The notes under the pieces are model-generated. The model was not told the origin of the DNA, searched no databases, and was given only the letters and a program-made list of their open reading frames with translations. A stretch of 61,551 nucleotides of DNA, filler included. It is 5 parts of 5 records of this genome, joined end to end, with 100 filler letters (N's around TTAATTAATTAA, not from the genome) between each part and the next. Parts side by side here need not be neighbours in the genome. Positions count along the whole stretch, not along the records: positions 12,701 to 27,913 come from SRR20825006_2165; 4 more parts are not named here. One strand, written 5' to 3'. The position numbers were made by a program, and so were the translations under genes. Shown here one piece after another: positions 6,365-42,797 of the stretch (position 1 is its first letter; every line of letters begins with the position of its first letter).

Positions 6365-6440
6365 TAACCTCCAATTCTGTTGCGGGTCGCTGCTGACCTG
6401 CTTGCTTGCGGTGATCAAAGATCAAGAAAGAGACTGCCCC

Positions 6441-13223: not shown

Positions 13224-13344
13224 AGCGCTCTCCCATGTTCTTTTCCGGCCACAATAGGGCCGTCGGACATTGGGGGCAATCTGACGCCGTGATTTCGGAT
13301 CGCAAGATCAGATCCCACGATACGGAACAACTGGTTTGAACATG

Positions 13345-13377
13345 AAAAAGGCGACGGTCCTTACGGACAGCCGCCTT
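13345..13377 (-). terminator. Rho-independent terminator after rpmJ
   Basis: Minus strand AAGGCGGCTGTCC-GTAA-GGACCGTCGCC followed by TTTTT. Confidence 0.75.
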
Positions 13378-13398
13378 GATCGGATCAGGCCGGAGCGA

Positions 13399-13524
13399 TT
13401 AGCCCTGGCGTGCCTTGAAGCGCGGATTCTGTTTATTGATCACGTAAGTCCGGCCCTTGCGGCGAACAACGCGACAATTACGGTCCCGCTTCTTCAGCGT
13501 TTTGATCGAATTCGCGATTTTCAT
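13399..13524 (-). CDS. rpmJ: 50S ribosomal protein L36, type B (non-zinc-ribbon), 41 aa; absent from the ORF track
   Basis: Manual translation [41 protein letters not shown], the typical alphaproteobacterial L36 pattern. Confidence 0.97.
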
Positions 13525-13652
13525 GACACGAGTCCAAATAATTCCGTCGGAAAGGCTAGCTGCCTTCGAGAAGCGCGGAACATATGGTGGAGGATGGGGG
13601 TTGTCAACGCTTGATGCCTGAAAAAACGCTCAGCCCGGGAACCGCTTCCCGG

Positions 13653-15670: not shown

Positions 15671-17275
15671 TCACGCATTCAGAAACGCGGCGTCCGACCT
15701 GAGTTCGATCAGGGTCGGACCCGCTGCCGCGAAGGCTTCGGCGAGTGCATTGCCGAAGCCTTCCGCGCTTTCGGGCCGGGCATAACCGCAATGGTAGGCC
15801 GCCGCGAGCGCGGAGAAGTCCGGCACAAGCAGGTCCGTGCCCAGCGGCTGCACACCCGCATTGATCATGTGATCCCGGATCTCGCCATAACCGCCATTGT
15901 TCCAGACCACCACAGGCAAGGGCATACGCAGCTCCGCCGCAACAATCAGCTCCTCCGCCGTGAACAGCAACCCGCCATCGCCGGCAATCACCATGGCCGG
16001 CCGCTCCGGCGCGCCAAGCTTCGCGCCGATCGCCGTCGGCACCCCGGTGCCGAGCGTTCCGAAGCCGTTCGGGAAATGCCAGCCATTGGGATGATCGATC
16101 CGGAAGTAGGAAGCGCCGGTATAGGCGACCTGCGTCGAATCGAGAGAGATGAAGCAATTCTCCGGCAGATACTCGGCCAGCATATTAAGCATGCGGCAAC
16201 GGTTCATCGTCTCGGGCACCTCATGCTCCGCACGGTTCTCACCCCAGAGCCGCGCCGCGCGCTCTTCGGCGCCTGTGACAGGTGTGCCTGCAAGGCATTC
16301 GGTCAGGGCGGCCATGGTCAGCGCTGCATCCCCCAGGATCGCAAGGTCGGGCCGGAAGCTGCGCACGAGCTGCGCCGGATCGATATCCACGCGGATCAGT
16401 TGGTCTCCAAGCCGGATACTGGCAGCACTCGTCCAGAAACTGGTCTCCGCCAACTCGGAGCCGACAGCGAGCACGATATCGGCAGCCGCAAGCACCCGCT
16501 GGGTCGGCTCAAGCTCCAGCGTCGCCCCGGCGCTGAGGGGATGGGTTTCCGGGATCGCTCCCTTGGCGGCCGTGGTTGTCACGACCAGTGCACCGAGTCG
16601 TTCAGCCAGAGCCAGCGCTTCCGCCCCGGCCCATTTCGCCCCGCCGCCGAGCAACAGGACCGGCCTTTCGGCCCCGGACAAGAGTGCCGCAGCCTCAGTT
16701 ACAGCACCGGCTTCAGGCCCTGGCTTTGGCGTTCCTGGCCATGCGGCTGCATCGACATTGGCGCCCAGGTCAAACAGATCGCGCGGCACCTCCAGCCCAA
16801 CCGGGCGGGGACGTCCGCTATTGAACTGGGCAAAGGCCTGCGCAAACACTTCCGGCAGGTTTTCCGGAGCCCGCAGTTGGTGATTGAAGGCGGTGACGGT
16901 CCGCGCCGCGTCATGCTGGTTCGGCATTTCGTGCAGGAAGCCCTGCCCCATGCCGAGCTCGTTGCTCTTGTTCGCCGCGGCAACAACCAGCATCGGCACG
17001 GAATCCGAATAGGCCTGGCCGATCCCCGTCGCGGCATTCAGCAGGCCCGGGCCGGTGATGACGGAACAGGCGGCGGGGCGGCCGGTTGCAAGGCCGTATC
17101 CATAGGCCATCAGCGCCGCACCCTGCTCATGCCGGGGCGTCACATGACGCAAACCACTTGAGACCAGCCCCCGGTAGAAAGCCACGGTATGCACACCCGG
17201 AATTCCGAAGATCGTATCGATCCCGTAGCTTTCCATCAGCCCGACAATCGCGTCAGCGCAGCTTTTCTCGGCCAT
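15671..17275 (-). CDS. ThDP-dependent decarboxylase (5-guanidino-2-oxopentanoate decarboxylase / AruI-like)
   Basis: FGIPGVHT; TPRHEQGA; ThDP motif GDGGLLF...WNN; GFGTLG. Confidence 0.82.
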   Translation of the reverse strand: MAEKSCADAIVGLMESYGIDTIFGIPGVHTVAFYRGLVSSGLRHVTPRHEQGAALMAYGYGLATGRPAACSVITGPGLLNAATGIGQAYSDSVPMLVVAAANKSNELGMGQGFLHEMPNQHDAARTVTAFNHQLRAPENLPEVFAQAFAQFNSGRPRPVGLEVPRDLFDLGANVDAAAWPGTPKPGPEAGAVTEAAALLSGAERPVLLLGGGAKWAGAEALALAERLGALVVTTTAAKGAIPETHPLSAGATLELEPTQRVLAAADIVLAVGSELAETSFWTSAASIRLGDQLIRVDIDPAQLVRSFRPDLAILGDAALTMAALTECLAGTPVTGAEERAARLWGENRAEHEVPETMNRCRMLNMLAEYLPENCFISLDSTQVAYTGASYFRIDHPNGWHFPNGFGTLGTGVPTAIGAKLGAPERPAMVIAGDGGLLFTAEELIVAAELRMPLPVVVWNNGGYGEIRDHMINAGVQPLGTDLLVPDFSALAAAYHCGYARPESAEGFGNALAEAFAAAGPTLIELRSDAAFLNA

Positions 17276-17423
17276 TCCGCCCCCGTTACTTTCTGAAATT
17301 GACGCCGGCCCGGGCCGGTACCGTGCACCGCTTGGCACTTCACGGGACCCTAACGCCCGGTCTATCGTCGGCAAAACAACAAATTCTTACCCATTGATAA
17401 GCTCGCCTGGAGGGAGACCAGCC

Positions 17424-18170
17424 ATGACCACGGACATTCAGCAAGCCCGCATCGATCTCGCCTGTTCACTGCGCTGGTCCGCCCGCATGGGCCTCAATGA
17501 AGGCGTCGACAATCACTTCTCGCTGGCTCTGCCCGACGATGACGGCGTGATGCGCGGCAACCGGTTCCTGATCAACCCGTTCGGCTGGCACTGGTCTGAA
17601 GTCACAGCCTCCTCGATGGTGCTCTGCGACGGTGACGGCACTGTCCTTGAAGGATCGGAGACGGTTGAGGACACGGCCTTCTTCATTCACAGCCAGATGC
17701 ACAAACACGTGCCGAGTGCCGTCTGCATCATGCACACGCATATGCCCTATGCCACCGCCCTCACCCTGCTGGAAGGCGGCCGGCTGGAGATGTGCGAGCA
17801 GAACGCGCTGATGTTCGATGGCCGCATCGCCTATGACGATGAATATGAAGGTCTGGCGCTGGACGAGGATGAAGGCGCGCGGATGGCGAGCAAGATGGGC
17901 AATAACGCGATCCTGTTCCTCGCCTGCCATGGTGTCATCACCACCGGCGCCACGGTGCAGGATACTTTCAACGATCTTTATTATCTGGAACGGGCCGCCA
18001 AGGTGCAGGTGCTGGCGAAATCCACCGGCCAGAAAATGCGCACGATTTCGGACCGGGTCCGCTCCCACACCCGCCAGCAAGCCTCAACCGAAAACGCCCG
18101 GGTCGCGGACCGGCATTTCAAGGCACTGCGCCGGATGCTGGAGAAAGAAGAGCCAGATTTCCTGAACTAA
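17424..18170 (+). CDS. Class II aldolase/adducin-family protein
   Basis: NHFS; FFIHSQMH; HTHMPYATAL; CHGV. GGAGGGAG RBS. Confidence 0.87.
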   Translation: MTTDIQQARIDLACSLRWSARMGLNEGVDNHFSLALPDDDGVMRGNRFLINPFGWHWSEVTASSMVLCDGDGTVLEGSETVEDTAFFIHSQMHKHVPSAVCIMHTHMPYATALTLLEGGRLEMCEQNALMFDGRIAYDDEYEGLALDEDEGARMASKMGNNAILFLACHGVITTGATVQDTFNDLYYLERAAKVQVLAKSTGQKMRTISDRVRSHTRQQASTENARVADRHFKALRRMLEKEEPDFLN

Positions 18171-18319
18171 CGCGCCAATATTTGCATGCCGGGACCATCC
18201 TGAATATACCTTTATGGAGAATAACCCGGCATGCAAAATAATCTTTAATTGCAATTGGATTGCTGGCACGATCCCCAGCATCGGGAGCAAAGGCGCTCTA
18301 CGATGCAGGACCGGGATCG

Positions 18320-19237
18320 ATGGACAGGCACGGGAAAATCGATAGCGGCGCCGGGCGTAATAGCTATGCGCCAATTGGCCAAGAAATGGCCCCGTCTCTC
18401 GCCAGATTGATCGCGAGCGCGAACCTGCGCACCTTTTACGAGGATCCTGAAAATCTTTGCGAAATCCTCGATCTGATCAGCCAGATTATCACGGCAAAAT
18501 CGATCGAGCTGCTGTCGATCGATGTTTTCGATACGGCCCTTCTCCGCGCAACATCGCCGGAACTTGACCGTTTCTGGACACACTCGAAACTCTTCCAGCA
18601 AATCATATCCGGCTCTGACGCCGGAGCGAATATCGACCCGGAAGACATACTGCTCGCCCGGCTCATCACCGCACGCGCCGCCTATGGAATGCAGCGGGAT
18701 CCCGAAGCTGAAGGCGATCCGTCACTCAACGCCATCGCCAACGCCGTTTGCACGCTCCTCAACCGGCCGGATCTGGCCGCGCGCTATATCCAGACCGAGC
18801 TGGAATGCGAGATCGAGAATGTTTCCCTCAATCCGCTTGTTACAGCGCTTGAAGAACGGTTCCCGTCACTGCCGATCGTCTTCCTGTCGGATATGTATCT
18901 GGACAGCAGTCAGATCGGACGCATCTTTTCCGCCCTGAAGACGAGCGAGAAACGTCCACGGATTTTCTCTTCGGCGGATGGTCACGGCAGTAAAGCGGCA
19001 GGCGCATTGTTCAGCCATGTTGCCCGGACCATGCGTGTCGCCCCGGGCCACGCGCTGCATATCGGCGACAATCTGGAAGATGATTATCGCAGCGCGAAGC
19101 GCTCTGGCTGGAACGCTCTCTATCTGCCGCTTCCCGGCGAAGAGCTGGATACACGCCGGGATTGCTTCGCCGACACCCTCGCGCGGATCCCTGTTCTGGA
19201 GAGCGGCTTCAGGCTGGAATGCAGGTTCACGCCATGA
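18320..19237 (+). CDS. HAD-superfamily phosphatase of the phosphoribose-phosphatase type
   Basis: SIDVFDTALLR; FLSDMYL; GSKAAGALF; HIGDNLEDD. Start uncertain (18260, 18320 or 18386). Confidence 0.8.
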   Translation: MDRHGKIDSGAGRNSYAPIGQEMAPSLARLIASANLRTFYEDPENLCEILDLISQIITAKSIELLSIDVFDTALLRATSPELDRFWTHSKLFQQIISGSDAGANIDPEDILLARLITARAAYGMQRDPEAEGDPSLNAIANAVCTLLNRPDLAARYIQTELECEIENVSLNPLVTALEERFPSLPIVFLSDMYLDSSQIGRIFSALKTSEKRPRIFSSADGHGSKAAGALFSHVARTMRVAPGHALHIGDNLEDDYRSAKRSGWNALYLPLPGEELDTRRDCFADTLARIPVLESGFRLECRFTP

Positions 19238-21681
19238 CACGGCAAAAAACCGAACCGAGGACCCTCGGGGAGATCGGCCGGGATCTGCTTGGCCCGCTCC
19301 TCAATCTCTATTTACTGAAACTGCACGCACATCTCATGCAAACGGACCCGCGCCGTGACCGCATCCTGTTCACCCTGCGCGCCGGTCTCCGAATTCAGAC
19401 TCTCTACGGCATCTGGCTGAAGCAGCGGGGCTTACCCTTTCCCGCCAATGCCGCGCTCTTCCGCGCCTCCCGCCTGATGGCCGTCAAGGCGGCTTACGGC
19501 CCCGTTCCGGATCTCGCTCTGACTGCTCTCGGCAGGGAGATGGAGGGGGAAACCCTGGAGAGCATCCTCCGCGCGCTGTTACGGTCACAGCCCCTTTACG
19601 GGAAGAACGGCGCTCTGCCACCAATCCCGCAACAGCCCCTTCACGAATTCCTGCGCACGGACTTGCCCATCGCAAAAAGCGTGCGCCTGCATCTGCAGCA
19701 GCAATCCCGTCTCTTTGCGGATTATCTCGATGCCCTCGCCGATGGCGCGGACCGGTTTATCCTGATCGACACCGGATGGCGCGGGACACAGCAGCTCTTG
19801 CTGGAACAGGCCTTTCCGGCGCGGGACTGGACAGGTCTCTATTTCGGCTGCACGGAACGGACGGAGATCCTTGGATATCGGCCACGGAAGATGTCCGGTC
19901 TGATGTTCGACAGCCCGCATTACGATCCCGACGAGCCCGTTACCGCCATCATTCTCCACCGTCACCTGATCGAGAGCCTGCTTGAGCCTGCACTCCCTTC
20001 CGTTGAGCGTATCGACCAGAACGATATCGAGGCGGCACGACAACCAGCCCCGCCGGATCACACCGCGCATGGCGCACACAGTCTGCCCGATCCGGCCTTT
20101 GAGGGCGTTGTCGCCCATATCAACGCGCACGCGGCGGACAGCCCCGGGAAAATTGCAGCCTCCTGCGCAATGGCCTTGACACTGCTCCCGGACATGATTG
20201 CCGCGCCGACAAGGGACGACCTGCACCTGCTGACCCTGAAGCCGCGCTCACTGGATCTTGGACGCGCCGGCTCCGTCTCCGTCATCCTGCCCGCGAAAGG
20301 TCGTTTTCCCGGCGACACACCACAACAACGGATCGACGATGCGCTCTGGCAGCCGGGACAAGCCGCCATCGAATTCGACGGGGAGCGGCGGCAACGGGCG
20401 CAGCGCATCTTGCGGGCGCAAGCAACGCGCCCGGCAAAACAGGACGAGCCCGGCGTCGCGATCATTACCCGCACCAAGGATCGTCCCCTGTTGCTTGAAA
20501 GGGCCGCCCGCAGCATCGCCAAACAGAGCTATCGAAACCTGTACTGGGTTATCGTCAATGATGGCGGCGACCCGGAGCCGGTGCGGGAAATCATCGAAAA
20601 ATCCCTCGTAGACCCGACACGCATCATCTTCCGCTCACATCCGGAAAGCGCCGGTATGGAAGCCGCTTCCAACGCCGGCATCCGCGCGTCCGCATCCGAC
20701 CTGATCGTCATTCACGACGACGATGATAGCTGGGAGCCGGATTACCTCGAACAATCCGTCGCTTTTCTGAACCGGCATGGGCCGCTGTATGACGGTGTCG
20801 TCTGCCACAGCATCCATGTTGAAGAGGTCCTCTCCGAAGGCAGGGTGCTTGAATGCGGCCGCCGCCCCTTCAACAGCTGGCTCCAGAATGTGCAAATCGC
20901 CGAGATGGCGGCCGGTAATGTGTTCCCGCCGATATCCTTCCTGTTCCGGCGCTCTTTATGGGAACGCCTTGGCGGGTTTGACGAAAGCCTCCCGGTGCTC
21001 GGGGACTGGGATTTCAATCTGCGCTTCCTGATGAATGCCGATATCGGTGTCCTGCCGCAGCCCCTGGCGAACTATCACCACCGCTCAAACGAAGGCCAGG
21101 AGAGCGTCGGCAGTTACGCGAATTCCGACAGCGGCAGCGAAAACCCGCATGTCGCCTTCAGCGCCATCTTGAGAAACCGCTATCTGCGGCGGGCGGCGCA
21201 TGAACCGCAATTTGCCACACTCGCGGGTCTGATGGGTCAGGCCTATGGGTTGGGGGACCTGAGATCCCGTCTTGAGACAACTCCCGCCGGAATGTCCCGC
21301 TCCATGCCCGAAGACTCCGAACTGGACAGGCTGAAAGCCCGCTGTGCGGCGCAGGAGAAGGAGCTCGACCGGCGCTGGGTTCTGCTGCAAATGACCGTCA
21401 CCGAGATTATCCGCACCCGCGGCCTTGCCGTCGAGGCGGGCGACCTGATCCCTCAGCTTTCCGGCCTGGCCGATCACTACATCCGGACAACCGTGATACA
21501 GCCGCCACCGGATTTCGACGAATTTGCATACCGGGCGGAGAACCCCGACATCGCCCGGGCGATTGCCGAGGGGCGCTTCAAGACTGCTTTTGACCACTTC
21601 ACCAAGTTCGGCCAACACCAGGGTCGGCAGCGGCCGCATGTGGAACCTGCCGACCAACAACAGGTGCCAGCCGATGACTGA
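19234..21681 (+). CDS. Multidomain glycosyltransferase: phosphoribosyltransferase-like N-domain + GT2 + C-terminal NPD repeat motif
   Basis: LLGPLL...FTLRAG...LIDTGWRGTQQ; GT2 motifs IITRTKDR, VNDGG, HDDDD, LGDWDF; C-terminal FDEFAYRAENPDI...DHFTKFGQHQGR. ATGA overlap with the HAD gene. Confidence 0.78.
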   Translation: MTRQKTEPRTLGEIGRDLLGPLLNLYLLKLHAHLMQTDPRRDRILFTLRAGLRIQTLYGIWLKQRGLPFPANAALFRASRLMAVKAAYGPVPDLALTALGREMEGETLESILRALLRSQPLYGKNGALPPIPQQPLHEFLRTDLPIAKSVRLHLQQQSRLFADYLDALADGADRFILIDTGWRGTQQLLLEQAFPARDWTGLYFGCTERTEILGYRPRKMSGLMFDSPHYDPDEPVTAIILHRHLIESLLEPALPSVERIDQNDIEAARQPAPPDHTAHGAHSLPDPAFEGVVAHINAHAADSPGKIAASCAMALTLLPDMIAAPTRDDLHLLTLKPRSLDLGRAGSVSVILPAKGRFPGDTPQQRIDDALWQPGQAAIEFDGERRQRAQRILRAQATRPAKQDEPGVAIITRTKDRPLLLERAARSIAKQSYRNLYWVIVNDGGDPEPVREIIEKSLVDPTRIIFRSHPESAGMEAASNAGIRASASDLIVIHDDDDSWEPDYLEQSVAFLNRHGPLYDGVVCHSIHVEEVLSEGRVLECGRRPFNSWLQNVQIAEMAAGNVFPPISFLFRRSLWERLGGFDESLPVLGDWDFNLRFLMNADIGVLPQPLANYHHRSNEGQESVGSYANSDSGSENPHVAFSAILRNRYLRRAAHEPQFATLAGLMGQAYGLGDLRSRLETTPAGMSRSMPEDSELDRLKARCAAQEKELDRRWVLLQMTVTEIIRTRGLAVEAGDLIPQLSGLADHYIRTTVIQPPPDFDEFAYRAENPDIARAIAEGRFKTAFDHFTKFGQHQGRQRPHVEPADQQQVPADD

Positions 21682-22546
21682 CGCTTTCCCCGCCGCCAGT
21701 GCCTATATCCAAACCTTGCAGTCAGAGGCCGAGGCTGCCGAGGCAAAGGCGCAACGGGTCCGGCAAACCATCGAGCGCTGTTGGTCCATGACGTCAGATG
21801 CACTGCCGCCACCGGCCATGATGAATATTGTCGGCAGCCCGGACGAAGCCCACTTCCGCGCCACGATGTGCGATCTGTTCGGTGAGCTGGTTCAGCGCGG
21901 CAGTGTCGAGCGGACGGCGACGATCCTCGATCTTGGCTGCGGATGCGGGCGGCTGGCGATCCCCTTCGCCGCCCACCTGGACGGCGGCTCCTATTACGGC
22001 ATCGACGTCTGGCAAGAAGGCCTCGACTGGTGCCGGAATAATGTCGTCTCCGACACAGGCAGCATCCGCTTCATTCAGAGAGAGGCGGTCAATAATTACT
22101 ATTTCGAGCCGCGCAATCCCGGCGCCGCGAACCGCTATCACCTCTCCGAGCTGCACCATGAAGAGGTCGATTTCGCCTTTGCCATATCCCTTTTCACCCA
22201 TCTCCAGAAGCAGGATTGCATCAGCTATTTCTCGGAGTTGTCGCGGGTATTGAAGCGCGGCGGATGCGCGTATCTGACCTGTTTCATCATTGATGAATTC
22301 TTTTTCGATTTCGTCCGCCGCACCGGGTTGCACCGGTCCGTCACGCAGGAAGAGCAGGGCTGTTACTACGCCTATCAGGGGCAGGATTTCTTTGCCGGCT
22401 ACACCCGCGCGACCTGGACCCGGATGCTGGAAGACAGCGGCCTCCGGATTGTCGGCTTCGACCCGGGGAAATGGGCGGAGAAGCCGGGTGCCCTGCATTA
22501 CCAGGACACATTCATGGTCGTTCCACAGGGCTACAGGAAGGACTGA
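21674..22546 (+). CDS. Class I SAM-dependent methyltransferase
   Basis: ILDLGCGCGRL; YYGIDV; FAISLFTHL; RVLKRGG. ATG 21674 overlaps the GT stop. Confidence 0.88.
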   Translation: MTDAFPAASAYIQTLQSEAEAAEAKAQRVRQTIERCWSMTSDALPPPAMMNIVGSPDEAHFRATMCDLFGELVQRGSVERTATILDLGCGCGRLAIPFAAHLDGGSYYGIDVWQEGLDWCRNNVVSDTGSIRFIQREAVNNYYFEPRNPGAANRYHLSELHHEEVDFAFAISLFTHLQKQDCISYFSELSRVLKRGGCAYLTCFIIDEFFFDFVRRTGLHRSVTQEEQGCYYAYQGQDFFAGYTRATWTRMLEDSGLRIVGFDPGKWAEKPGALHYQDTFMVVPQGYRKD

Positions 22547-22586
22547 ATATGCCGGGGCGAGACGCTGTCGCGCGGGAGAAAATCAT

Positions 22587-23567
22587 ATGGCATCTCTGGT
22601 AGGAGGGTTCGATCCGGTAGAGAACCGGAATATAGACGCGGAGCAAAGCACTCTCATTCGCGACTTTCTTGATTCGCTCGGCCTGGCTGAATCCTCCGTC
22701 GAGACCGTCACGGTTCAATCATTTGACAGCTCATCCGGTGGCGATAGTCCGGCGCCTTTTGTTCTGTCGGACACGATAACGGCCGCGACGGCCCTTGCTC
22801 CCGACGGGAAACAGATCTCGCTTTCCCTCAACCCCGACTCCGAAACCGGAAAGACCCTGATCATACAGGGCTCGGGAGATGCCCTGATCACAGGCAGCGG
22901 CAGCGGCGACAATATTCAGGCGGGCAGTGGTTCCGATACCATCGATGCGGGCATCGGCGACGACCTTGTGCGTGGCGGCATCGGCTCCGACAGTCTGATC
23001 GGAGGACTTGGTAACGATATTATCTACGGTAATACGGGAAGCGACACGCTTGCCGCGAATGAAGGCGCGAACAGTCTTTTCGGCGGTCAGGGAGAGGATC
23101 ATATATCCGGCGGTGCTGACGGCGATTTCCTGATGGGCAACCGGGACGCCGATATCGTCCATGGCAACGCGGGCTGGGATATCGTCTACGGAAATCAGCA
23201 GAACGACACGATCTTCGGCGGTGCCGGCGACGACACTCTCTATGGCGGCCAGAACGACGACATGCTGGAAGGCGGGAGCGGAGACGACGCCTTGCACGGT
23301 AATCTCGGTGGCGATCAGTTCGTCTTCCGGAGCAACAGCGGCGTCGATGTCATCCATGACTTCGTCGCGGGGACCGACACGATCGTTGTCTCAACGGGGA
23401 TCAATGGTCTGCCGGTTACCGAACCGGGCGATCTCACCACCCGCATCTCCAGCGATGCACTCGGCAATGCCGTGATCGATTTCGGAGGAGGCAATGTCGT
23501 CACCATCGACGGCCTGAACGCCCACGACCTGCTCAGCGACATCGGCTCTTACATCAGTATCGGCTGA
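22587..23567 (+). CDS. RTX calcium-binding T1SS substrate (326 aa)
   Basis: Multiple GGxGxD-type nonapeptides; C-terminal GGDQFVF...DVIHDF signal; no Sec signal; GGAGAA RBS. Confidence 0.9.
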   Translation: MASLVGGFDPVENRNIDAEQSTLIRDFLDSLGLAESSVETVTVQSFDSSSGGDSPAPFVLSDTITAATALAPDGKQISLSLNPDSETGKTLIIQGSGDALITGSGSGDNIQAGSGSDTIDAGIGDDLVRGGIGSDSLIGGLGNDIIYGNTGSDTLAANEGANSLFGGQGEDHISGGADGDFLMGNRDADIVHGNAGWDIVYGNQQNDTIFGGAGDDTLYGGQNDDMLEGGSGDDALHGNLGGDQFVFRSNSGVDVIHDFVAGTDTIVVSTGINGLPVTEPGDLTTRISSDALGNAVIDFGGGNVVTIDGLNAHDLLSDIGSYISIG

Positions 23568-23612
23568 CCAAGAGTCCGTCGATGACCAAAGATAAGCGCG
23601 TTCTTCAAATAC

Positions 23613-25346
23613 ATGAATCGAGAAATGATGCCGAAGCAAAATGATGCAGATCCGTCACCTCCCCTGCATCTTCAATCGGTCCTGGCAAAATGCGTCCCGG
23701 GCTTGATGCTTTGCATTCTTTTGAGCTTCGTCATTTCACTCACGATGTTCATTCCTCCCCTGTATATGTTGAAACTTTTCTCCGGCGTGACGGAAAGCGG
23801 CAGCGTTGCGACGATTGCAGGCCTGTCGCTCCTCGCGGGCGGAGCAATCCTGCTCTATTCCATCCTCGATTATTTGCGCAGCCTGACCTACCACCGCCTT
23901 TCCAGCTGGCTCGCGGAGCGGCTGGGCGAGGTTGTCATTGCGCCAATCTCGGCGCTTTCTCTCAGTGACGGAGAAAGGCCGGCGGAACTGCTGAAGGATA
24001 TCGGACTGCTGCGTGATTTCGTTTCAGGCGGCTCGCTCACCGCCGGGCTGGAAATGATCTGGGCACCGATGTTCTTCGCGACACTCTTCATCCTGCATCC
24101 CTATTTCGGCTGGCTCGGTCTCGGAGCAGGGACAGTTCTCCTGGCGCTGGCCGTGGCGAACGATCTCCTGACCAGAACACCGGTCCGGCAAAGCAGCGAA
24201 CGCGCAGAAGCAGCCTACCGGGAAATCGGCGATACCCTGCGCTGCGGCGAAGTTATCGATGCCATGGGCATGCTTGCCGGTATTGCCCGGCGATGGCGCG
24301 CCCATAACGCGGCAATGATCGCGGCCAACATGCGCGGGGCACAGCGTCAGGCCTTGGTTCTAAGCGCGGCGAAGGGTATCCGCCTTGCGGTACAGTTGGC
24401 CGTGTTTGGTGGCGGCACCCTGCTGGTGCTGGAGCAGGCCGCGGATTTCGGCACGCTGCTCGCCAGCTCCATCATCCTTGTGCGCGCCCTCGCGCCGCTG
24501 GAGCAATTGCTTGACCGTTGGCGGCACTGGAACGCGGCGGCATCCGCGCTCCGGCGCATTGCAGCCATCCTTGCCGAACCCGTGCGCCTGCAGCGCTCTT
24601 CGATGCCACAGCCCCGTCCCTGCACCAGACTGAGGCTTGAGCGTGTCTCTTTCGTCCCCCCCGGTGCCCCGCGGCCAACCGTGAAAGGCGTCAGTTTCGA
24701 TGTCGGCAGCGGAGAGTTCATCTGCATCGCGGGAGCGGCGGCATCAGGGAAAACCACACTTCTGCAACTGATGACCGGCCTTTGGAAGCCGACCGTAGGT
24801 TTCGTCACACTGGACGGGCACGACACCCACAGCTGGAGCCGGGAGGATTTTGGCAGCCATATCGGCTATCTGCCGCAATCGGTTCAGCTCATTGGCGGCA
24901 CAGTGCGCACGGTCATCTCCCGGATGTCGAACTGCGATCCCTACGCCACGGTCAAGGCCGCCAAACTTGCCGGGATTCACGATTTGATCGGGAAACTGCC
25001 AAACGGGTATGACAGCCCTATGGAAGGCAGTGGTGCGCAACTGACCGGAGGTCAGCGGCAGCAAGTCGGTATCGCCCGCGCCCTTTACGGAGATCCCGTA
25101 CTGATCCTTCTGGATGAACCAGACAGCAATCTGGACAAGAATGCGCTCAACACCCTGATTGCCACGCTCAAATGGCTGAAAGAGCGGGGCCGGATGATTG
25201 TCGTCACCAGTCATCGCCAGGAAATGCTGCGCAGCGCGGACCGGGTGATCCTGCTCGATCAGGGCGCCGTTATAAAAATCGCCATACCGGCTCCAGCCCC
25301 CTCAACCGCCCTTCCCCCTCACCTGCCTGAGCCAGCCGCATCATGA
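23613..25346 (+). CDS. PrtD/AprD-family T1SS ABC transporter
   Basis: PPLYML; Walker A GAAASGKT; HIGYLPQ; LTGGQRQ; LLDEPDSNLD. No C39 domain. Confidence 0.9.
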   Translation: MNREMMPKQNDADPSPPLHLQSVLAKCVPGLMLCILLSFVISLTMFIPPLYMLKLFSGVTESGSVATIAGLSLLAGGAILLYSILDYLRSLTYHRLSSWLAERLGEVVIAPISALSLSDGERPAELLKDIGLLRDFVSGGSLTAGLEMIWAPMFFATLFILHPYFGWLGLGAGTVLLALAVANDLLTRTPVRQSSERAEAAYREIGDTLRCGEVIDAMGMLAGIARRWRAHNAAMIAANMRGAQRQALVLSAAKGIRLAVQLAVFGGGTLLVLEQAADFGTLLASSIILVRALAPLEQLLDRWRHWNAAASALRRIAAILAEPVRLQRSSMPQPRPCTRLRLERVSFVPPGAPRPTVKGVSFDVGSGEFICIAGAAASGKTTLLQLMTGLWKPTVGFVTLDGHDTHSWSREDFGSHIGYLPQSVQLIGGTVRTVISRMSNCDPYATVKAAKLAGIHDLIGKLPNGYDSPMEGSGAQLTGGQRQQVGIARALYGDPVLILLDEPDSNLDKNALNTLIATLKWLKERGRMIVVTSHRQEMLRSADRVILLDQGAVIKIAIPAPAPSTALPPHLPEPAAS

Positions 25347-26668
25347 GTGCTCTCACCGATTATCGAACCGAGGGCATTCCGCCCTCCCCCCGGATTGGCC
25401 CTATCGCCCTGTCTGCGCTTGCCGTGATTACGTTTTTTATTATCGGGATCGTGCTCTGGAGCTGGCTCGTACCGCTCAATGCCGCCGTGCTGGCCGAGGG
25501 CCGCGTTCTGGTCCAGTCATACAAAAAAACGGTTCAGAGCCGGGATGGCGGACGGATCATACGGCTTCTGGTGTCGGAAGGAGACAGTGTCGCCGCCGGG
25601 CAACCGCTACTGCGCTTCGACCCAACGGAAGCCTGGGCCGAACATGACATGATCCGCAATCGCTTCATCCAGGCCCTCGGACGGGAGGCTCGTCTGTCAG
25701 CCGCCTTGCGAGGCGCGAGCCAACCGGACTGGCCAGCAGCCCTGACCCGGGATGCTACGGATCCGACAGCCATGCGGGTGATGGAAATCGAGCAGACCCT
25801 TTTCGAGGCCGCACGCCGGGAACAGCATGGCAAAGAACTGGTTCTGGCCCGCCGGATCGCGGAAATAGAGGAGGAAGTCCGATCCCTGGAGGCACAACTC
25901 CGTTCCGCGGACAGGCAACTGCCGATGCTGGAAGAGGAAACAGCGGATGTTACAACCCTTTTGAACAAGGGGCTGGAGCGCAAGCCCCGACTACTCGCCC
26001 TCAAGCGCGCCCGCGAAACCCTTCTGGGAAAACGGGATACGCTCCGGAGCAACATCGCCCAGGCCGAGGAAAACCTGGCCGCCGCCAGGCTCAATCTCCT
26101 GGCCTTCAAAAACCAGAGCCAGACGGAACGCGCCGAAGCCCTGACCCAAACATCAAACGAGATCGCAGCACTGCGCCAGCAGTTGAAAAGCGCCCGCGAC
26201 CGCCTGCGCAACACGGAGATACGAGCGCCCGCGTCGGGGGAGGTTGTCGACCTCGCCTTCCATACCATTGGCGGTGTAGCCCGGCCGGGAGAAGAGATCC
26301 TGAGCATTATCCCCCGGCAGGACGAACTTGTTGTCGACGCACGCATCCGGGCGGCCGATATCGACGCGGTTTATCGCGGCCAACTGGCCGAAGTCCGCAT
26401 CAGAGCCTATCGCTGGAAAGACCGCCCGCCACTGCATGCGCGGGTCGTGCGCATTTCAGCGGACCTGCTGGAGGATGCGATAACCGGCCGGCCTTTCTAC
26501 GAGGCGAGACTGCGTTTCGATGTCGGCAGCGGCCAAACGGACGCGATATCCGACCTCAAAGTGGGAATGGCGGCGGACGTCGCGCTTCTGACAGAAACAC
26601 GAACCGCCGCCGACTATCTGCTCGGCCCCATTTATCAGCTCATGTTCCGCGGGTTCCGGGAACAGTGA
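25343..26668 (+). CDS. PrtE/HlyD-family membrane fusion protein
   Basis: N-terminal TM; VQSRDGG; IRAPASG; DYLLGPI. ATGA overlap. Confidence 0.92.
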   Translation: MSALTDYRTEGIPPSPRIGPIALSALAVITFFIIGIVLWSWLVPLNAAVLAEGRVLVQSYKKTVQSRDGGRIIRLLVSEGDSVAAGQPLLRFDPTEAWAEHDMIRNRFIQALGREARLSAALRGASQPDWPAALTRDATDPTAMRVMEIEQTLFEAARREQHGKELVLARRIAEIEEEVRSLEAQLRSADRQLPMLEEETADVTTLLNKGLERKPRLLALKRARETLLGKRDTLRSNIAQAEENLAAARLNLLAFKNQSQTERAEALTQTSNEIAALRQQLKSARDRLRNTEIRAPASGEVVDLAFHTIGGVARPGEEILSIIPRQDELVVDARIRAADIDAVYRGQLAEVRIRAYRWKDRPPLHARVVRISADLLEDAITGRPFYEARLRFDVGSGQTDAISDLKVGMAADVALLTETRTAADYLLGPIYQLMFRGFREQ

Positions 26669-26749
26669 GGCGCGCTTTTCGTCCCTCCGACCAGGGTTTC
26701 TTCATATCTCCCTCATTTGCAGGATATGCTTTTGGCCGGGGAGAACGGA

Positions 26750-27913
26750 ATGACGACGACACTGACGATAGTGCAATCACGTATCGCGCTTATTGATCCG
26801 CAGGACTGTACCGATAATTCGGACACACTCGCCTTGCTGGACGCCCTTTTCGACGCACTTGTACGGCGCGGTGCAGACGGGCGATTCGAGCCTGCTTTGG
26901 CAGAGAGCTGGGCATTAAGCGAAGATGCCCGTCGCTGGACCTTTAGCCTCCGGCCAGGGCTGCGCTTTCACGACGGCAGTACGCTGGATGCGGAAGCGAT
27001 GAAATACTCCGTCGAACGCATGCAACGTCCAGACATCGGCGCCACCCTCGGCGCACCGGCTGTCTGGGGCCAGTATCTCGGCGGCGCACGCATCACAGCC
27101 CAAGATCCCCTGACCCTGACGATCGAGACGGCCGAGCCGACTGCCGATCTGCTTGATATTCTGGTTTCCGGCTATGCTCTGCCGCCCCATCTGGCGGACC
27201 GCCCAGACTTTACGCAGCACCCGGTCGGCAGCGGGGCTTTCCAATTCGAAGGCGCGGAACCCGGCCGGGAAGTCCGTATGACGGCCAACCCTCATTGGTG
27301 GGGCGGTGCAAGGCCACAGAAAGAATTAATCTGGCACAGTGTGCCACTGTCCGAGGCCAGGGCAGAGGCCCTCGCAACCGGAAGGGCGCAGGTGGCAACC
27401 CACCTGTCCCCTGACGCCGCCGCTCTGCTTGGCGACGGTATCACGCAGCATGATTACTTCGACCCGACAGCGATCATCTACTTGCTGAATGCCGCATCGG
27501 GACCGTTCAGCGATCCCCGTGTCCGGCGCGCGATCACGCTGGCCGTCGACAGGCAGGCCTTGATTGACGAGGTACTCAACTGCGCCGGAACGCCGCTCGG
27601 TGGTTTCGTCAGCAGTGCCCATATCGGCGCCGCGCCGGAGCCGACAGACATAAAACCCGATCCCAAGACCGCTCGGGCCCTTCTCGCCGAAGCGGGCTAT
27701 GGCGAGGGCCTTGAGCTTGGCATCGACTGCCCAACCAGACTGCCCGACGAAGCCCAGGCCCTGACCAGCGCCCTCGCCCGCCAACTCGCAACGGTCGGGA
27801 TTTCAGTCACGGTGCGCACGATTGAAGATCGGGTCGCCTACGCGGAGCAGATCCGGGACAAGAAAATCCAGGACATGTGCGTCTTCGACTCCAGCCCGAT
27901 GAGCACGTTCCGC
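26750..27913 (+). CDS. Family 5 (DppA-like) solute-binding protein, 3'-truncated, no obvious signal peptide
   Basis: PALAESW; LRPGLRFHDG; PVGSGAF; DPRVRRAI. GGAG RBS before ATG 26750. Confidence 0.85.
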
Positions 27914-28013
27914 NNNNNNNNNNNNNNNNNNNNNNNNNNNNNNNNNNNNNNNNNNNNTTAATTAATTAANNNNNNNNNNNNNNNNNNNNNNNNNNNNNNN
28001 NNNNNNNNNNNNN
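27914..28013. other. Artificial contig linker
   Basis: 44 N + TTAATTAATTAA + 44 N. Confidence 0.98.
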
Positions 28014-28037
28014 GCGATTCTCCCACTCCCATTCTCG

Positions 28038-28070
28038 CCCCGGACCCGGAAAGGTTCGGGGTTTTTTTTT
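28038..28070 (+). terminator. Rho-independent terminator
   Basis: CCCCGGACC-CGGAAA-GGTTCGGGG followed by 9 T. Confidence 0.88.
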
Positions 28071-28193
28071 CGCTTGAATACCCGACCCAAAATGCGCCTT
28101 GCACAACTGTATGCTTTAAAGCGCAGCCAGAACCCTTTAATGTCTTCAAACGGTTATCTGAACAGCACATCCTAGGCGGAGAGACGCACCCAC

Positions 28194-30263
28194 ATGTCCG
28201 ACCAACTCAAGACACTGTTGCGACGCGGGTTGAGTGCGCATGAGGGCAATCGCCCGGAAGAAGCCGAAAAGATCTATCGCCAAATCCTTGATATTTCCCC
28301 GGCCAATGCCGAGGCCGAACATCTTCTGGCAACGCTTTTAACCAGTCAGGGCCGCAATGGCGAAGCCATAGATCTGTTTGAAAGCTGTCTTTCAAGTGTC
28401 GGGGCCAATCCGGCAGCGCGGTGCAATTATGCCATTGCGCTTGAAAGTTCGGGCCAGATTGAAAAGGCAATTGATCAGTTTAAACAAGCGATTAGTTACC
28501 ATGGGGATTTTCCGACCGCGCTTTATCACCTTGCCCGACTTGAAATACCGCGAGGGCATTTGGGGCAAGCGGTTGATCTTCTGGGGCGACTTCTTGGACT
28601 GAAGCCGGATCATTTCGAAGGCCTGTTACTGTTTGGCAATGCGCTTCATGCCTTGGGGCAGGAAAAAGCCGCCCTGATGTCACTTGATCATGCCGCCGAG
28701 GCCGCAGGGATTACCCCGGACATGATTTGCCGGGTTGCAACGGCACATCTGCGTCTTGGCTATCCCGCGCCAGCACAGGGACTTTATCAACGTGCACTCA
28801 GCATTGATGCCAAGTTTGTTCCGGGCCTGCGCGGACTTGGCCAATCTCTTGCCCATCAAGGTCAGTATGCCAAGGCGATTGCGTTGCTGAAGACCGCCCG
28901 GCAACTTGCCAAAAACACCGATGACATTGATCTTGTTCTGGCCGATATCACGCTTAAATGCGGGGACGTTTTTGGCACCATCGAGATCCTTGAAGCGGTT
29001 CTGAAAGCAAATCCGGACAATGCGATGGCCGATGCCCTGTTGTTGCGCAGCAAGGCGAAACTGGCATCGGGCGACGGTACGGAATTTGCAAAAGAAGCCA
29101 AGAACTGGGCAAAGCATCACATGCCGATCGCCGCAAAGCCGGTATTTGCCAATACGCGGCAATCGGACAAGCGATTGCGGGTCGGCTGGATATCGCCGTT
29201 TTTCTGTGAACATCCATCCTTTAAACTTCTGGGATCGCTTGCCCGCAACCTGAACCGGCATGAAGTTGAACTGTTCCTGTATTCCGCTACACCGCGCCCG
29301 GATGACGTGACAAGATCCTGGCAGGTTATGGCCGATGGCTGGCGCGAAGTTTTCGGGCAGGACCCGATGCAGATCGCTGATCGCATCCGCAAGGACAAGA
29401 TCGATATTCTGATTGATCTTTGCGGCGCCCATCCGACCCAACCGATTGAAGTGTTCGCCCTGCATGCCGCCCCGGTTCAGGCAAGCCTTTCCCCCACCAC
29501 GACCGGCATGACGCAGATCGATTATCTGATCGGTCACAAGGAAGTTTTCAGCGGGAAGCTTGCCAATAACAAGGGCCTTTCGGAACATCCGCAGAAACTT
29601 GAACTTGGTCCGTATCTGCCCGGTGAACTTGATGATACATTTCCGGTCAGTCCGCTTCCGGCCGCCTTTAACGATGATATCGTCCGGTTTGGCTGCATTG
29701 ATAAGCTGGCCAATATCAGTGATGAAACGCTTATGTGTTTTGCCCGGATTCTTAACAAGATCACGAACAGTCGCATTGTTATTCAAGATGATGTTCTTGA
29801 GGATTCCTATGCGGCGAAAACGTTCCTTGATCGCACCCGACAGGCCGGGATCAATCGCGACCGACTTGATCTTGCAGGAACCGTTGCACCAGAAGACCGC
29901 CCAGCCCTTTTCGCCCAGATCGATATCGGGCTGGCACCATTTCCGGCCATTTGCCTTGAAAACCATTTTGAAATGCTGTGGGCGGGTGTGCCATTTGTGT
30001 CGCTTGCCAGTGACCTGCCCGGATCACGATTGGGCCTGGCGATTTTGGCCGATATTGGTCTTGGTGCTTTATGTGCCCATACCGAAAAGGGCTATGTCGA
30101 TAAATGCATCATGCTGAGCACCGATCTTAAAGCATTGGCCAGTATTCGCGAAAACATGCGCGACCGCATACGCAACGCCAAAGCATTCCATGCGCCCGCC
30201 GTCGCACGCGAATTCGAAGAATCCTGTCGCGAGATGTGGCAGAACTGGTGCCTTCGGAAATAG
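28194..30263 (+). CDS. TPR + OGT/SPINDLY (GT41)-like protein with degenerate catalytic motifs
   Basis: N-terminal TPRs; RLRVGWIS; DKIDILIDL; APVQ; LWAGVPFVSL. GGAGA RBS. Confidence 0.82.
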   Translation: MSDQLKTLLRRGLSAHEGNRPEEAEKIYRQILDISPANAEAEHLLATLLTSQGRNGEAIDLFESCLSSVGANPAARCNYAIALESSGQIEKAIDQFKQAISYHGDFPTALYHLARLEIPRGHLGQAVDLLGRLLGLKPDHFEGLLLFGNALHALGQEKAALMSLDHAAEAAGITPDMICRVATAHLRLGYPAPAQGLYQRALSIDAKFVPGLRGLGQSLAHQGQYAKAIALLKTARQLAKNTDDIDLVLADITLKCGDVFGTIEILEAVLKANPDNAMADALLLRSKAKLASGDGTEFAKEAKNWAKHHMPIAAKPVFANTRQSDKRLRVGWISPFFCEHPSFKLLGSLARNLNRHEVELFLYSATPRPDDVTRSWQVMADGWREVFGQDPMQIADRIRKDKIDILIDLCGAHPTQPIEVFALHAAPVQASLSPTTTGMTQIDYLIGHKEVFSGKLANNKGLSEHPQKLELGPYLPGELDDTFPVSPLPAAFNDDIVRFGCIDKLANISDETLMCFARILNKITNSRIVIQDDVLEDSYAAKTFLDRTRQAGINRDRLDLAGTVAPEDRPALFAQIDIGLAPFPAICLENHFEMLWAGVPFVSLASDLPGSRLGLAILADIGLGALCAHTEKGYVDKCIMLSTDLKALASIRENMRDRIRNAKAFHAPAVAREFEESCREMWQNWCLRK

Positions 30264-30277
30264 GCACCAAAACGTTT

Positions 30278-30922
30278 CTAGCGTGTGATCAAGGTGCCAA
30301 GGATATGGTCAACGGCCGATGCCAAATCATCGGCAATGAAATCCGCCTCGGACGCATCAGGCAATTGGGTTTCCTTGGCCCCGTGGCCGGTTCGAACCAT
30401 GATCGCGCGGGCTTGAACGCCATGTGCGGCACGGACGTCATTGATCCGATCCCCGACCAGAACACTTTCATTCAACGAAATCGCAAATTCGGACGCGGCG
30501 GAAACAAGCATTCCTGATCCGGGCTTGCGACAATCGCTTTCGCGGCGATATTCGCCCTCGCCCTTCATATGGAAGGGGGAATAATAAATGCCCTGCACAG
30601 ATGCCTTTTCGCGGCCCAGCATGGCGACCAGCGCCTTATGAATTTCAAGCAACTGATCTTCGTTTAGATACCCGCGCGCGACACCGGACTGGTTGGTCAC
30701 GATAATGACGGGAATGTCCGCGTCATTCAGACGTCGAATGGCGGATGCAGCCCCGTCGATCAGTTTTAGTTCTTCTACACGCGACAGATAGTGGACTTCT
30801 TCATTGATCACACCGTCGCGGTCCAGAAAAACCGCCGGCAGCAGATTGCGGCGGTCCCGAAAACGTGGGGCCGGATCAATCAAATGACGTCTGACGGTTT
30901 CTTTAGCCTGTCCGCTCATCAC
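30278..30922 (-). CDS. gmhB: D-glycero-D-manno-heptose 1,7-bisphosphate phosphatase-like HAD enzyme
   Basis: FLDRDGVIN; VTNQSG; CRKP; VGDRIND. Confidence 0.8.
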   Translation of the reverse strand: MMSGQAKETVRRHLIDPAPRFRDRRNLLPAVFLDRDGVINEEVHYLSRVEELKLIDGAASAIRRLNDADIPVIIVTNQSGVARGYLNEDQLLEIHKALVAMLGREKASVQGIYYSPFHMKGEGEYRRESDCRKPGSGMLVSAASEFAISLNESVLVGDRINDVRAAHGVQARAIMVRTGHGAKETQLPDASEADFIADDLASAVDHILGTLITR

Positions 30923-31109
30923 TGACCTTTGTTCAATTCAATTTGGGCAACAATGCCGATGCCTGCCCAAGATGACAAGATGATCTGACATACACATTGC
31001 CATTCCGCACTGCGGAAAACAAATTGGTATTACCATTATTCGCTTGCAGGAGAAGTGCCCGCCGTGACATTTTCGGGTTAAAAGCACCTGATTGAGGAAT
31101 ACGTAATCA

Positions 31110-42793: not shown

Positions 42794-42797
42794 GGGA

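Follow-up and report, generated by a model that had tools for sequence, protein, structure and literature searches.

The window analysed here, which is the whole stretch of 61,551 nucleotides with filler included, carries at positions 18320-26668 six overlapping genes on the same strand, encoding a HAD enzyme, a large protein with a glycosyltransferase family 2 (GT2) domain, a methyltransferase, an RTX protein, and PrtD-like and PrtE-like components of a type I secretion system (T1SS). We found that this operon joins two systems of known kinds: a split ribofuranosyltransferase of the type that depends on phosphoribosyl pyrophosphate (PRPP), and an RTX/T1SS/methyltransferase module of the type found in the exp/wg clusters for exopolysaccharide II (EPS II). 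As judged from profiles and a structure model, the split is a natural one, with the phosphoribose phosphatase (PRP) and the glycan phosphoribosyltransferase (gPRT) on separate polypeptides and the gPRT domain fused to GT2. Because the methyltransferase, RTX, PrtD-like, and PrtE-like proteins and a trailing family-5 solute-binding protein (SBP) match exp proteins, a common cluster order recurs among exp-like plasmids, and the operon is conserved in Nisaea, we lean on balance, and by analogy, towards a polysaccharide module of exp/wg type with a ribofuranose-adding glycosyltransferase in place of the usual large one.

The HAD protein contains the motifs DVFDT, SDMYL, K, and GDN..DD, and its HAD matches in Pfam were all below threshold. 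When this single sequence was compared with PDB chains, the best match was 7shg_A, a "ribofuranosyl transferase" (E 2.6e-4), with motifs I-IV aligned. These four motifs are invariant across 14 PRP orthologues from related loci. The profile built from these orthologues (A4) had its best PDB match in residues 362-589 of Bcs3, which correspond to the CrpP part (E 8.9e-18), and also matched residues 26-249 of 7shg_A (E 4.7e-17), with the next HAD enzyme at E 1.4e-6. The assignment of this protein as the putative phosphatase half of a PRPP-type glycan ribofuranosyltransferase is well supported by these profile matches.

The transferase half was assigned to the N-terminal domain of the 815-aa protein encoded by the second gene. 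Residues 1-400 match no Pfam or NCBIfam family, and Pfam Glycos_transf_2 was found at residues 410-529 (E 1.5e-16). Two profiles were built, A1 from 15 full-length homologues of the 815-aa protein and A2 from 54 mostly stand-alone gPRT relatives plus the window domain. Positions 26-307 of A1 aligned with residues 300-585 of 7shg_A (E 2.2e-11), and 7shg_A was the sole PDB match of A2 (E 6.6e-15). The motif LIDTGWRGTQQ is present, its aligned counterpart in 7SHG being VDVGWKGTIQ. Residues 1-400 were also modelled with AlphaFold2 (predicted local distance difference test score, pLDDT, 92.4; predicted template-modelling score, pTM, 0.92), and this model, compared with the PDB by Foldseek, retrieved 7SHG (E 6.7e-7; TM-score by query, TMq, 0.55) and the Bcs3 structures 8A0M/8A0C (E 1.8e-4 to 1.1e-3), the next match being at E 0.27. 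Seven residues (R49, G51, S79, R80, D179, G181, and E247) are invariant in 55 gPRT sequences, which does not imply a catalytic assignment, and the invariant columns align with identical residues in 7SHG, all but E251. Taken together, the profile and model comparisons give good support to a predicted PRPP-dependent glycan phosphoribosyltransferase fold in the N-terminal domain. Since the PRP profile matches Bcs3 and 7SHG, and the N-terminal domain matches 7SHG by profile and both 7SHG and Bcs3 by model, we read the pair as a split ribofuranosyltransferase fused to GT2, as the initial annotation had proposed. The closest solved relative of the GT2 domain is PglI (9jma_A; A1 profile, E 1.9e-13), which acts on an undecaprenyl-diphosphate-linked glycan. 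The C-terminal region of the 815-aa protein is helical and terminates in a PDFDE...NPD...GR.RP motif, profile A1 showing conserved columns for this part of the protein; a coiled coil in this region was judged by eye from the sequence and is not a computed prediction.

Known enzymes of this kind transfer ribose-5-phosphate from PRPP to a glycan, after which a HAD module strips the 5-phosphate, and in the formats covered by the cited parts of these papers (PRP-gPRT, CroT-CrpP-CriT, and GT4-PRP-gPRT) the phosphatase and the transferase are always on one chain (PMC11294581, PMC10299916, PMC11231755, PMC12096443). When Bcs3 was cut between CrpP and CriT, activity was retained in trans, as recounted in PMC10299916. 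According to the same parts, all characterised members use glycan acceptors, namely, the enzymes for K. pneumoniae O4/O7 (PMC11231755), STM0726 for Salmonella T1 (PMC11294581), Bcs3 (PMC10299916), and Cj1432 (PMC12096443). Pairing with a second glycosyltransferase into a polymerase is the rule among the characterised systems that these sources describe (PMC11231755, PMC11294581, PMC10299916, PMC12096443).

The split format is common among relatives. An exhaustive HMMER search with residues 1-400 gave 318 cluster representatives at E <= 0.001, and the best 150 were typed with hidden Markov models (HMMs) built for this analysis. Among these 150, 73 are gPRT-GT2 fusions, 65 are gPRT proteins without detectable PRP or this GT2, 11 are PRP-gPRT, and one is GT2-gPRT. 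Separately, 302 related stretches were confirmed when one genome per species was scanned, and the best 79 loci were examined; 48 of these 79 have a gPRT match longer than 150 residues, and in 34 of the 48 it is a fused gPRT-GT2. Of the 34 fused loci, 31 have a PRP gene no more than 1.5 kb from the fused gene. At two of the other three it lies 4.5-4.8 kb away, and the last is a 2.6-kb contig with a PRP fragment. On these profile matches, PRP plus gPRT-GT2 represents a known kind of enzyme in a widespread variant architecture. A description of it was not found in the ribofuranosyltransferase and glycan phosphoribosyltransferase literature that was searched, a scope outside which the founding 2022 paper lies.

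For the remainder of the operon, the closest parallel is found in exp/wg clusters. The PrtD-like ABC protein scored 494.5 bits against TIGR01842, just below the cut-off of 510.15, and the PrtE-like adaptor scored 330.2 bits against TIGR01843 (cut-off 208.65). When the window PrtD was searched against plasmids by tblastn, the best matches had 37-40% identity, and four of the five neighbourhoods inspected were exp-like (S. meliloti CP050512.1, Chelatococcus pCO-6, Azospirillum lipoferum 4B, and Phyllobacterium). Their order is a MarR regulator, a T1SS ABC protein, HlyD, a calcium-binding protein of 219-273 aa, a glycosyltransferase of ~750 aa, and an overlapping class I S-adenosylmethionine (SAM) methyltransferase, followed by GT4 and hypothetical genes and, in longer stretches, by more GT4 and pyruvyl transferase genes. 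The MarR position varies, with a winged-helix regulator plus galE in Azospirillum and none annotated in Phyllobacterium. At 95.7%, the S. meliloti stretch corresponds to positions 975651-984649 of pSymB from strain 1021 (NC_003078.1), and its gene content marks it as the exp/wg galactoglucan (EPS II) cluster. We take its methyltransferase to be ExpE3, from its position. The names ExpG/WggR, ExpD1/D2 (WgdA/B), ExpE1/WgeA, ExpE2/WgeB, and ExpE3 are those used in the cited parts of PMC1403797 and PMC3233446.

Pairwise blastp of the window proteins against the S. meliloti cluster matched the methyltransferase to the 281-aa methyltransferase (29% over 234 aa; E 2.7e-27), RTX residues 110-325 to residues 4-218 of the 219-aa calcium-binding protein (39% over 216 aa; E 2.8e-31), PrtD to the T1SS ABC protein (36%; E 2.4e-126), PrtE to the HlyD adaptor (31%; E 8.8e-64), the SBP to the terminal binding protein (25%; E 1.8e-15), and a GT4 gene product at 7775-9010 to the glycosyltransferase adjoining MarR (27%; E 4.7e-19). 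Identities to the Chelatococcus and Azospirillum proteins are 31-33% for the methyltransferase, 40-44% for RTX (up to 258 aa), 40% for the ABC protein, and 33-37% for HlyD. In the reverse direction, tblastn of 18 exp proteins against the window recovered the methyltransferase, the calcium-binding protein, the ABC protein, HlyD, and a GT415-like gene only; this GT415-like GT4 lies 10 kb upstream of the operon and is the only exp-type GT4 there. The methyltransferase gave generic matches only in the PDB (E 5.8e-4). ExpE2 (749 aa; L087:14198-16447) has an N-terminal part of ~460 aa without a Pfam family and GT2 at 467-694. A kinship of this N-terminal part with gPRT was considered and rejected (no HMM match; hhalign E 0.16). 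The 738-aa, 325-aa, and 234-aa neighbours of the ExpE2 position have no Pfam family, and the large proteins of L011, L016, and L024 (700-740 aa, GT2 from ~400-470) are laid out as ExpE2.

Starting from the observed folds, families, and split and from the conserved gene order, we infer PRPP as the donor, a glycan as the acceptor, a role for the methyl group, and functional coupling to RTX, as follows. In the cytoplasm, the gPRT domain would take ribose-5-phosphate from PRPP and attach it at the non-reducing end of a glycan linked to a carrier, and the separate PRP protein would strip the 5-phosphate. The fused GT2 would add the next hexose-type sugar, the pair acting as a two-sugar adder or a disaccharide-repeat polymerase, and the ExpE3-like methyltransferase would methylate the glycan. 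The small RTX protein would be exported by the ExpD1/ExpD2-like ABC protein and adaptor, and outside the cell it may serve as a calcium-binding accessory that polysaccharide production, release, or organisation requires, as ExpE1/WgeA in S. meliloti. According to the cited part of PMC1403797, ExpE1 binds calcium and is secreted through ExpD1/D2, and expD mutants are blocked in EPS II; in the part of PMC2912261 drawn on here the missing galactoglucan of an S. meliloti tolC mutant is attributed to missing WgeA secretion.

Several observations weigh against the exp-like reading. PrtD-class ABC proteins at 37-40% identity are numerous, and the Microvirga match has only a large RTX gene with a T1SS and is not exp-like. 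The exp cluster offers no counterpart to the gPRT domain, the GT2 domain, or PRP (HMM E > 1; hhalign E 0.16), and the Nisaea operon lacks most exp genes, including the GT4s, ExpE5/6/8, the pyruvyl transferases, and MarR. Neither an initiating transferase nor a glycan exporter was found on the contig among the 40 open reading frames (ORFs) of the window that were scanned, and 28 of the 34 fused gPRT-GT2 loci have no nearby T1SS. Furthermore, the role of ExpE1 in EPS II is itself unexplained, and the analogy would carry genetic dependence rather than mechanism.

The layout of the operon is summarised in Table 1. Read base by base, the junctions are ATGA at 19234-19237, an ATG at 21674 inside the overlap with the TGA at 21679-21681, and ATGA at 25343-25346; the methyltransferase gene overlaps the stop of the glycosyltransferase gene by 8 bp. 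GGGAGAA stands 7 nt before the RTX ATG at 22587, the intergenic gaps are 40-49 bp, and no terminator was predicted between the methyltransferase, RTX, and PrtD genes. These junctions, the ORFs, and the Pfam/TIGR matches bear out the six co-oriented, overlapping genes and the families named for them in the initial annotation. A seventh gene on the same strand, SBP_bac_5, starts 49 bp past PrtE. Because it is co-oriented at this distance and the only strong terminator-like site comes after it, the transcription unit probably spans 18320-27961, with SBP_bac_5 as its last gene. That site (28037-28062) is the strongest terminator-like one in 17000-31000. Promoter-like sites in the region number four, against 4.9 expected from shuffles, and the one at 18215..18242 is no evidence alone. 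The class II aldolase gene at 17394-18170 is conserved upstream in 6/6 Nisaea loci; it was considered as an operon member and rejected, given a 150-bp gap that contains the promoter-like site and no pathway link found. In line with the initial annotation, no ABC-2 (wzm/kpsM), wzx/wzy (flippase/polymerase), or initiating transferase gene was found among the 40 ORFs. The ABC protein, the membrane-fusion protein, and the RTX substrate are all encoded, and a TolC-type gene is absent within the operon. The sole OEP gene in the window (1733-3028) sits in a second T1SS cluster.

Table 1. Predicted features of the operon and its flanking signals, with positions counted along the window.
Feature	Position	Strand	Evidence
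PRP, HAD phosphoribose phosphatase, 305 aa	18320..19237	+	motifs, profile matches
gPRT domain, residues 1-400 of 815-aa protein	19234..20433	+	profile and Foldseek matches
GT2 (GT-A) domain with DDDD motif and helical C-terminal region	20434..21681	+	Pfam
Class I SAM methyltransferase, ExpE3 type	21674..22546	+	Methyltransf_25, E 1.5e-13
Small RTX protein, 326 aa	22587..23567	+	HemolysinCabind, E 5.9e-32
T1SS ABC permease/ATPase, PrtD/ExpD1 type	23613..25346	+	TIGR01842, E 3.6e-148
T1SS membrane-fusion protein, PrtE/HlyD/ExpD2 type	25343..26668	+	TIGR01843, E 1.9e-98
Orphan family-5 solute-binding protein	26717..27961	+	SBP_bac_5, E 7.8e-70
Promoter-like site before first gene	18215..18242	+	9/12 hexamer matches
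Intrinsic-terminator-like hairpin then T8	28037..28062	+	10-bp stem, 7 G-C pairs

At the protein level, the locus shares 95% identity with L005, which comes from the genome of an "uncultured Nisaea sp.", and the window groups with Nisaea (Thalassobaculaceae) on the gPRT tree. The operon is retained in 6/6 Nisaea loci, including that of N. denitrificans DSM 18348 (L006), and the position of SBP_bac_5 is kept in five of the six; L005 ends before SBP_bac_5. Among Nisaea, protein identities are 47-58% for PRP, 54-66% for gPRT, 58-81% for the GT2 domain, 76-88% for the methyltransferase, and 86-99% for the aldolase; PRP and gPRT are far more diverged than the genes on both sides. A methyltransferase gene is absent at L012 and L026.

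The AlphaFold2 model of the 326-aa RTX protein (pLDDT 92.2) has one continuous beta-roll with an N-terminal helix and, at residues 41-60, an exposed Ser-rich loop of lower confidence. In Foldseek it matched RTX beta-roll proteins only, and the protein carries the C-terminal region typical of PrtD-class substrates. Residues 110-325 are ExpE1/WgeA-like and the ~105 additional N-terminal residues are Nisaea-specific, with residues 1-125 confined to nine Nisaea-like protein clusters. No Ser or Thr in the loop at 44-57 is invariant across 10 homologues. A predicted complex of the 815-aa gPRT-GT2 protein with RTX residues 1-130, made without alignments, scored 0.05 against a mark of 0.34, which speaks neither for nor against binding.

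RTX genes were found at 13 of the 34 fused loci (6/6 Nisaea and seven Rhodobacteraceae). When 46 gPRT domains were placed on a maximum-likelihood tree, the window belonged to a fully supported Nisaea clade with an RTX neighbour in 7/7 rows. The RTX label requires seven changes on this tree, against 13.4 in shuffles, and 0/500 shuffles were as low; kin are not independent, and the result speaks for clustering only. The RTX link is not chance and looks like co-function with a glycan. In Rhodobacteraceae, the RTX neighbour belongs to a different family of ~1000-1100 aa, whose first 350 residues are homologous among L019, L023, L017, and L027 (30-46%; E 1e-16 to 1e-96) and have no similarity to the Nisaea RTX's N-terminal part. 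A shared non-RTX domain was sought between the Nisaea RTX and the Rhodobacteraceae and Stella RTX proteins and none was found, the best match being at E 0.005 in repeat-like stretches. The Rhodobacteraceae RTX genes are placed between KpsMT-like genes and PRP, L017 and L027 have a serralysin-like RTX protease beside the ~1000-1100-aa RTX gene, and L025 has fragments of that gene only (8534-8935). At L017, L018, L019, L020, L023, and L027, this family is retained beside PRP/gPRT-GT2 and KpsMT-like genes despite rearrangements. By analogy, these loci resemble a surface layer of the RsaA/Sap type linked to a glycan that contains ribofuranose. The Rhodobacteraceae genomes have ~2-6 RTX reading frames each, among the matches listed, and N. 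denitrificans has 168 RTX sites.

The surroundings of relatives were annotated with Pfam for 13 related loci (91 of 110 ORFs, without the 19 from L046 and L062). Genes for exporters of the ABC-2, KpsT-like, or Wzt (with Wzt_C) kind occur within 10 kb at nine of these loci (L011, L014, L016, L017, L019, L023, L027, L058, and L030, the last with the ATPase only) and are absent from L009, L024, L034, and L036. Sulfotransferases are present at five of the 13 loci, pyruvyl transferases at three, and further glycosyltransferases at most. The sulfotransferase genes stand alongside the module in L009, L017, L034, and L058 and as a fusion in L016, and the gene content of these loci suggests sulfated, ribofuranose-containing polysaccharides. 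Orthologues of the window methyltransferase (43-45% identity) occur in L016, L017, L018, and L020, and the same family is found in L069. In L016 (Nitrospirota), an ExpE3-type methyltransferase fused to Sulfotransfer_2 (12428-14032) directly follows gPRT-GT2, and in L017 the orthologue adjoins a sulfotransferase gene. Because relatives are accompanied by exporters, sulfotransferases, pyruvyl transferases, and methyltransferase-sulfotransferase links, and because of the kinship with PglI, the evidence points to a glycan acceptor for the gPRT-GT2 family. The window operon differs from nine of the 13 annotated relatives in that no ABC-transporter glycan locus surrounds it among its 40 ORFs. Two Nisaea genomes, G042 (that of L006) and G043 (that of L012), encode a Wzm/Wzt pair with Wzt_C, and also a Wzz/Poly_export/Bac_transf locus, far from the operon.

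Three other explanations have to be weighed with this context. PRP, gPRT-GT2, and the methyltransferase may make or modify an O-antigen or capsule whose priming and export are encoded at other loci, the RTX protein and its T1SS being mere neighbours, or the RTX protein binding that glycan at the surface as RsaA binds O-antigen, with neither required for its synthesis. The distant exporter loci of the two Nisaea genomes would fit such an arrangement, as would a methyl cap, which is read by Wzt_C in ABC-transporter O-antigens. O-antigen chain termination is discussed in the part of PMC11231755 consulted, and the ~1100-aa RTX and serralysin-like protease genes beside glycan genes in L017 and L027 resemble RsaA/Sap as described in the cited part of PMC3034196. 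With 168 RTX sites in N. denitrificans, a chance RTX neighbour is also not rare. We nevertheless consider this explanation rather unlikely, given the 40-49 bp gaps with no predicted terminator across the methyltransferase, RTX, and PrtD genes and a gene order that is kept across Nisaea at only 54-66% gPRT identity. Moreover, because the methyltransferase-RTX-ABC-adaptor-SBP set recurs in exp-like clusters of four other genera, we read these genes as one functional unit. It is highly improbable, in our assessment, that the polysaccharide, as such or lipid-linked, leaves the cell through the PrtD/PrtE-like pair with RTX as co-substrate or plug: the contig has no other exporter, but the ABC protein scores as a PrtD-class protein exporter and adjoins an RTX-repeat protein with a typical substrate C-terminus, and the loss of EPS II in the tolC mutant was attributed, in the cited part of PMC2912261, to missing WgeA secretion. 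Since two Nisaea genomes encode exporters elsewhere, the T1SS is not left as the sole export route, and the argument that the initial annotation drew from the T1SS as the only adjacent route is weak; exporters beside nine of 13 relatives and the known exp core also count against that argument.

The initial annotation further proposed that the RTX protein is itself the acceptor, so that PRP, gPRT-GT2, and the methyltransferase would O-glycosylate its Ser/Thr-rich N-terminal part in the cytoplasm and the T1SS would export a ribofuranose-bearing glycoprotein. HlyA is acylated in the cytoplasm before T1SS export, and modified substrates can therefore pass. The tight operon conserved in 6/6 Nisaea loci, the RTX genes beside gPRT-GT2 in 13/34 fused loci, including Rhodobacteraceae with few RTX genes, and the loop predicted to be exposed at residues 41-60 are all compatible with this proposal, and glycosylated RTX proteins do exist, namely, oscillin and SwmA, which "appears to be glycosylated" in the passage cited (PMC3034196). 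However, the characterised gPRT/PRP enzymes are all glycan-acting in the cited parts of their descriptions (PMC11231755, PMC11294581, PMC10299916, PMC12096443), relatives sit with glycan exporters, sulfotransferases, and pyruvyl transferases, mostly in ABC-transporter glycan loci, and the Rhodobacteraceae RTX beside KpsMT-like genes is of the unrelated ~1000-aa family. The loop has no invariant Ser or Thr across the homologues, and the homologous ExpE1 lacks the whole N-terminal part. We found no support for RTX as the acceptor and regard the proposal as improbable; it is equally doubtful that the 326-aa protein is O-glycosylated with a methylated hexose-ribofuranose unit and then exported by its own T1SS. 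If true, PRPP-dependent protein glycosylation would have its first example and RTX glycoproteins their first defined route; taken further, this could account for why "their" polysaccharide cannot do without ExpE1-class proteins. The operon order is conserved in 6/6 Nisaea loci, and 28/34 fused loci have no nearby T1SS. The proposal that the system as a whole is undescribed was not supported; a T1SS, a small RTX protein, a large GT2 protein, and an overlapping methyltransferase make up the known exp/wg core of S. meliloti and its relatives.

The exp-like reading, in which the large glycosyltransferase is replaced, would carry a module whose requirement for galactoglucan in S. meliloti has lacked an explanation since 2000 over to another sugar chemistry and a further bacterial order, and it suggests a portable accessory unit for polysaccharide production. 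The finding that a split form of the recently defined PRPP-dependent ribofuranose machinery is common should aid the annotation of surface-glycan loci in marine Alphaproteobacteria. For asking about the role or modification of the RTX protein, N. denitrificans DSM 18348 offers a seven-gene system compared with the 22-gene exp cluster.

Other genes and features of the window were noted. At 28194-30263 (+), 230 bp past the terminator and in a stretch of lower G+C content (0.53), lies a gene for a full-length SPINDLY/OGT-like protein of 689 aa with tetratricopeptide repeats (TPR) and GT41 (residues 17-687 match Arabidopsis SPINDLY 7y4i at E 9.2e-56; Pfam GT41, E 4.5e-28). It was absent from the 79 related loci by tblastn, including five Nisaea loci that reach past the SBP gene. 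If any local enzyme modifies protein, this member of a protein O-glycosyltransferase family would be the more conventional candidate. The second T1SS cluster (918-7778) encodes a BapA_N prefix-like protein (272 aa), a TolC-like OEP, a 711-aa ABC protein, HlyD, and an Omp85-family protein, and has ~70% DNA identity to G001:C10; a short BapA_N ORF lies at 12193-12648. Positions 40972-50000 are 99% identical to contig C1 of G001, and positions 1-40971 have scattered matches of up to ~70%. The two parts meet where an ABC ATPase gene (40975-41760) is truncated at its 5' end, its Pfam match beginning at profile position 80. The contig may be an assembly chimera or contain a recombination joint near 40972, with the operon unaffected. 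A gPRT gene was found in 0/41 genomes around G001, which is uninformative, G001 matching the right-hand part of the window only.

Compared with known systems, both halves of the window enzyme are homologous to the PRP-gPRT enzymes, namely, Thermobacillus composti 7SHG, K. pneumoniae ORF5(O4)/ORF7(O7), and Salmonella STM0726. The motifs DxFDT, SD.Y, K, GDN..D, and D.GW.GT of 7SHG-type enzymes align with the window proteins, and the chemistry is likely the same, with PRPP as donor, transfer of ribofuranose 5-phosphate, and dephosphorylation. ORF5/ORF7 and STM0726 are, according to the cited parts of PMC11231755 and PMC11294581, partnered with a GT-A enzyme, as is the window enzyme. In PRP-gPRT enzymes, however, an N-terminal PRP and a C-terminal gPRT form a single chain and the partner glycosyltransferase is separate, whereas in the window PRP stands apart and gPRT is N-terminal to GT2; the window locus also has no wzm/wzt. 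Bcs3 (CroT-CrpP-CriT; H. influenzae b) and Cj1432 (GT4-PRP-gPRT; C. jejuni HS:2) resemble the window in that the ribofuranose module is joined to the enzyme for the next unit, making a polymerase of repeat units, and they differ in domain order and partner and in belonging to capsule systems with KpsMT-type export, while the window phosphatase has its own gene.

Among RTX systems, Caulobacter RsaA (with RsaD/RsaE, Sap, and O-antigen anchoring) ties an RTX protein and its T1SS to a surface glycan, and the Rhodobacteraceae RTX and serralysin-like protease genes are similar; RsaA is anchored by smooth lipopolysaccharide, as stated in the cited part of PMC3034196. The Nisaea RTX is small and has no S-layer-like domain. 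SwmA of Synechococcus and oscillin of Phormidium, RTX glycoproteins treated in the same part of PMC3034196, are the sole precedent for RTX as an acceptor. The exp/wg cluster differs from the window operon in that the order is permuted (ABC-adaptor-RTX-glycosyltransferase-methyltransferase, against glycosyltransferase-methyltransferase-RTX-ABC-adaptor in the window), the large glycosyltransferases are not orthologous, gPRT and PRP are extra in the window, the window RTX is ~105 residues longer at its N-terminus, and the rest of the exp cluster and MarR are absent from the window. The two have in common a T1SS ABC protein, an adaptor, a small RTX protein, a protein of 750-815 aa with an N-terminal domain followed by GT2, an overlapping methyltransferase gene, and a terminal SBP.

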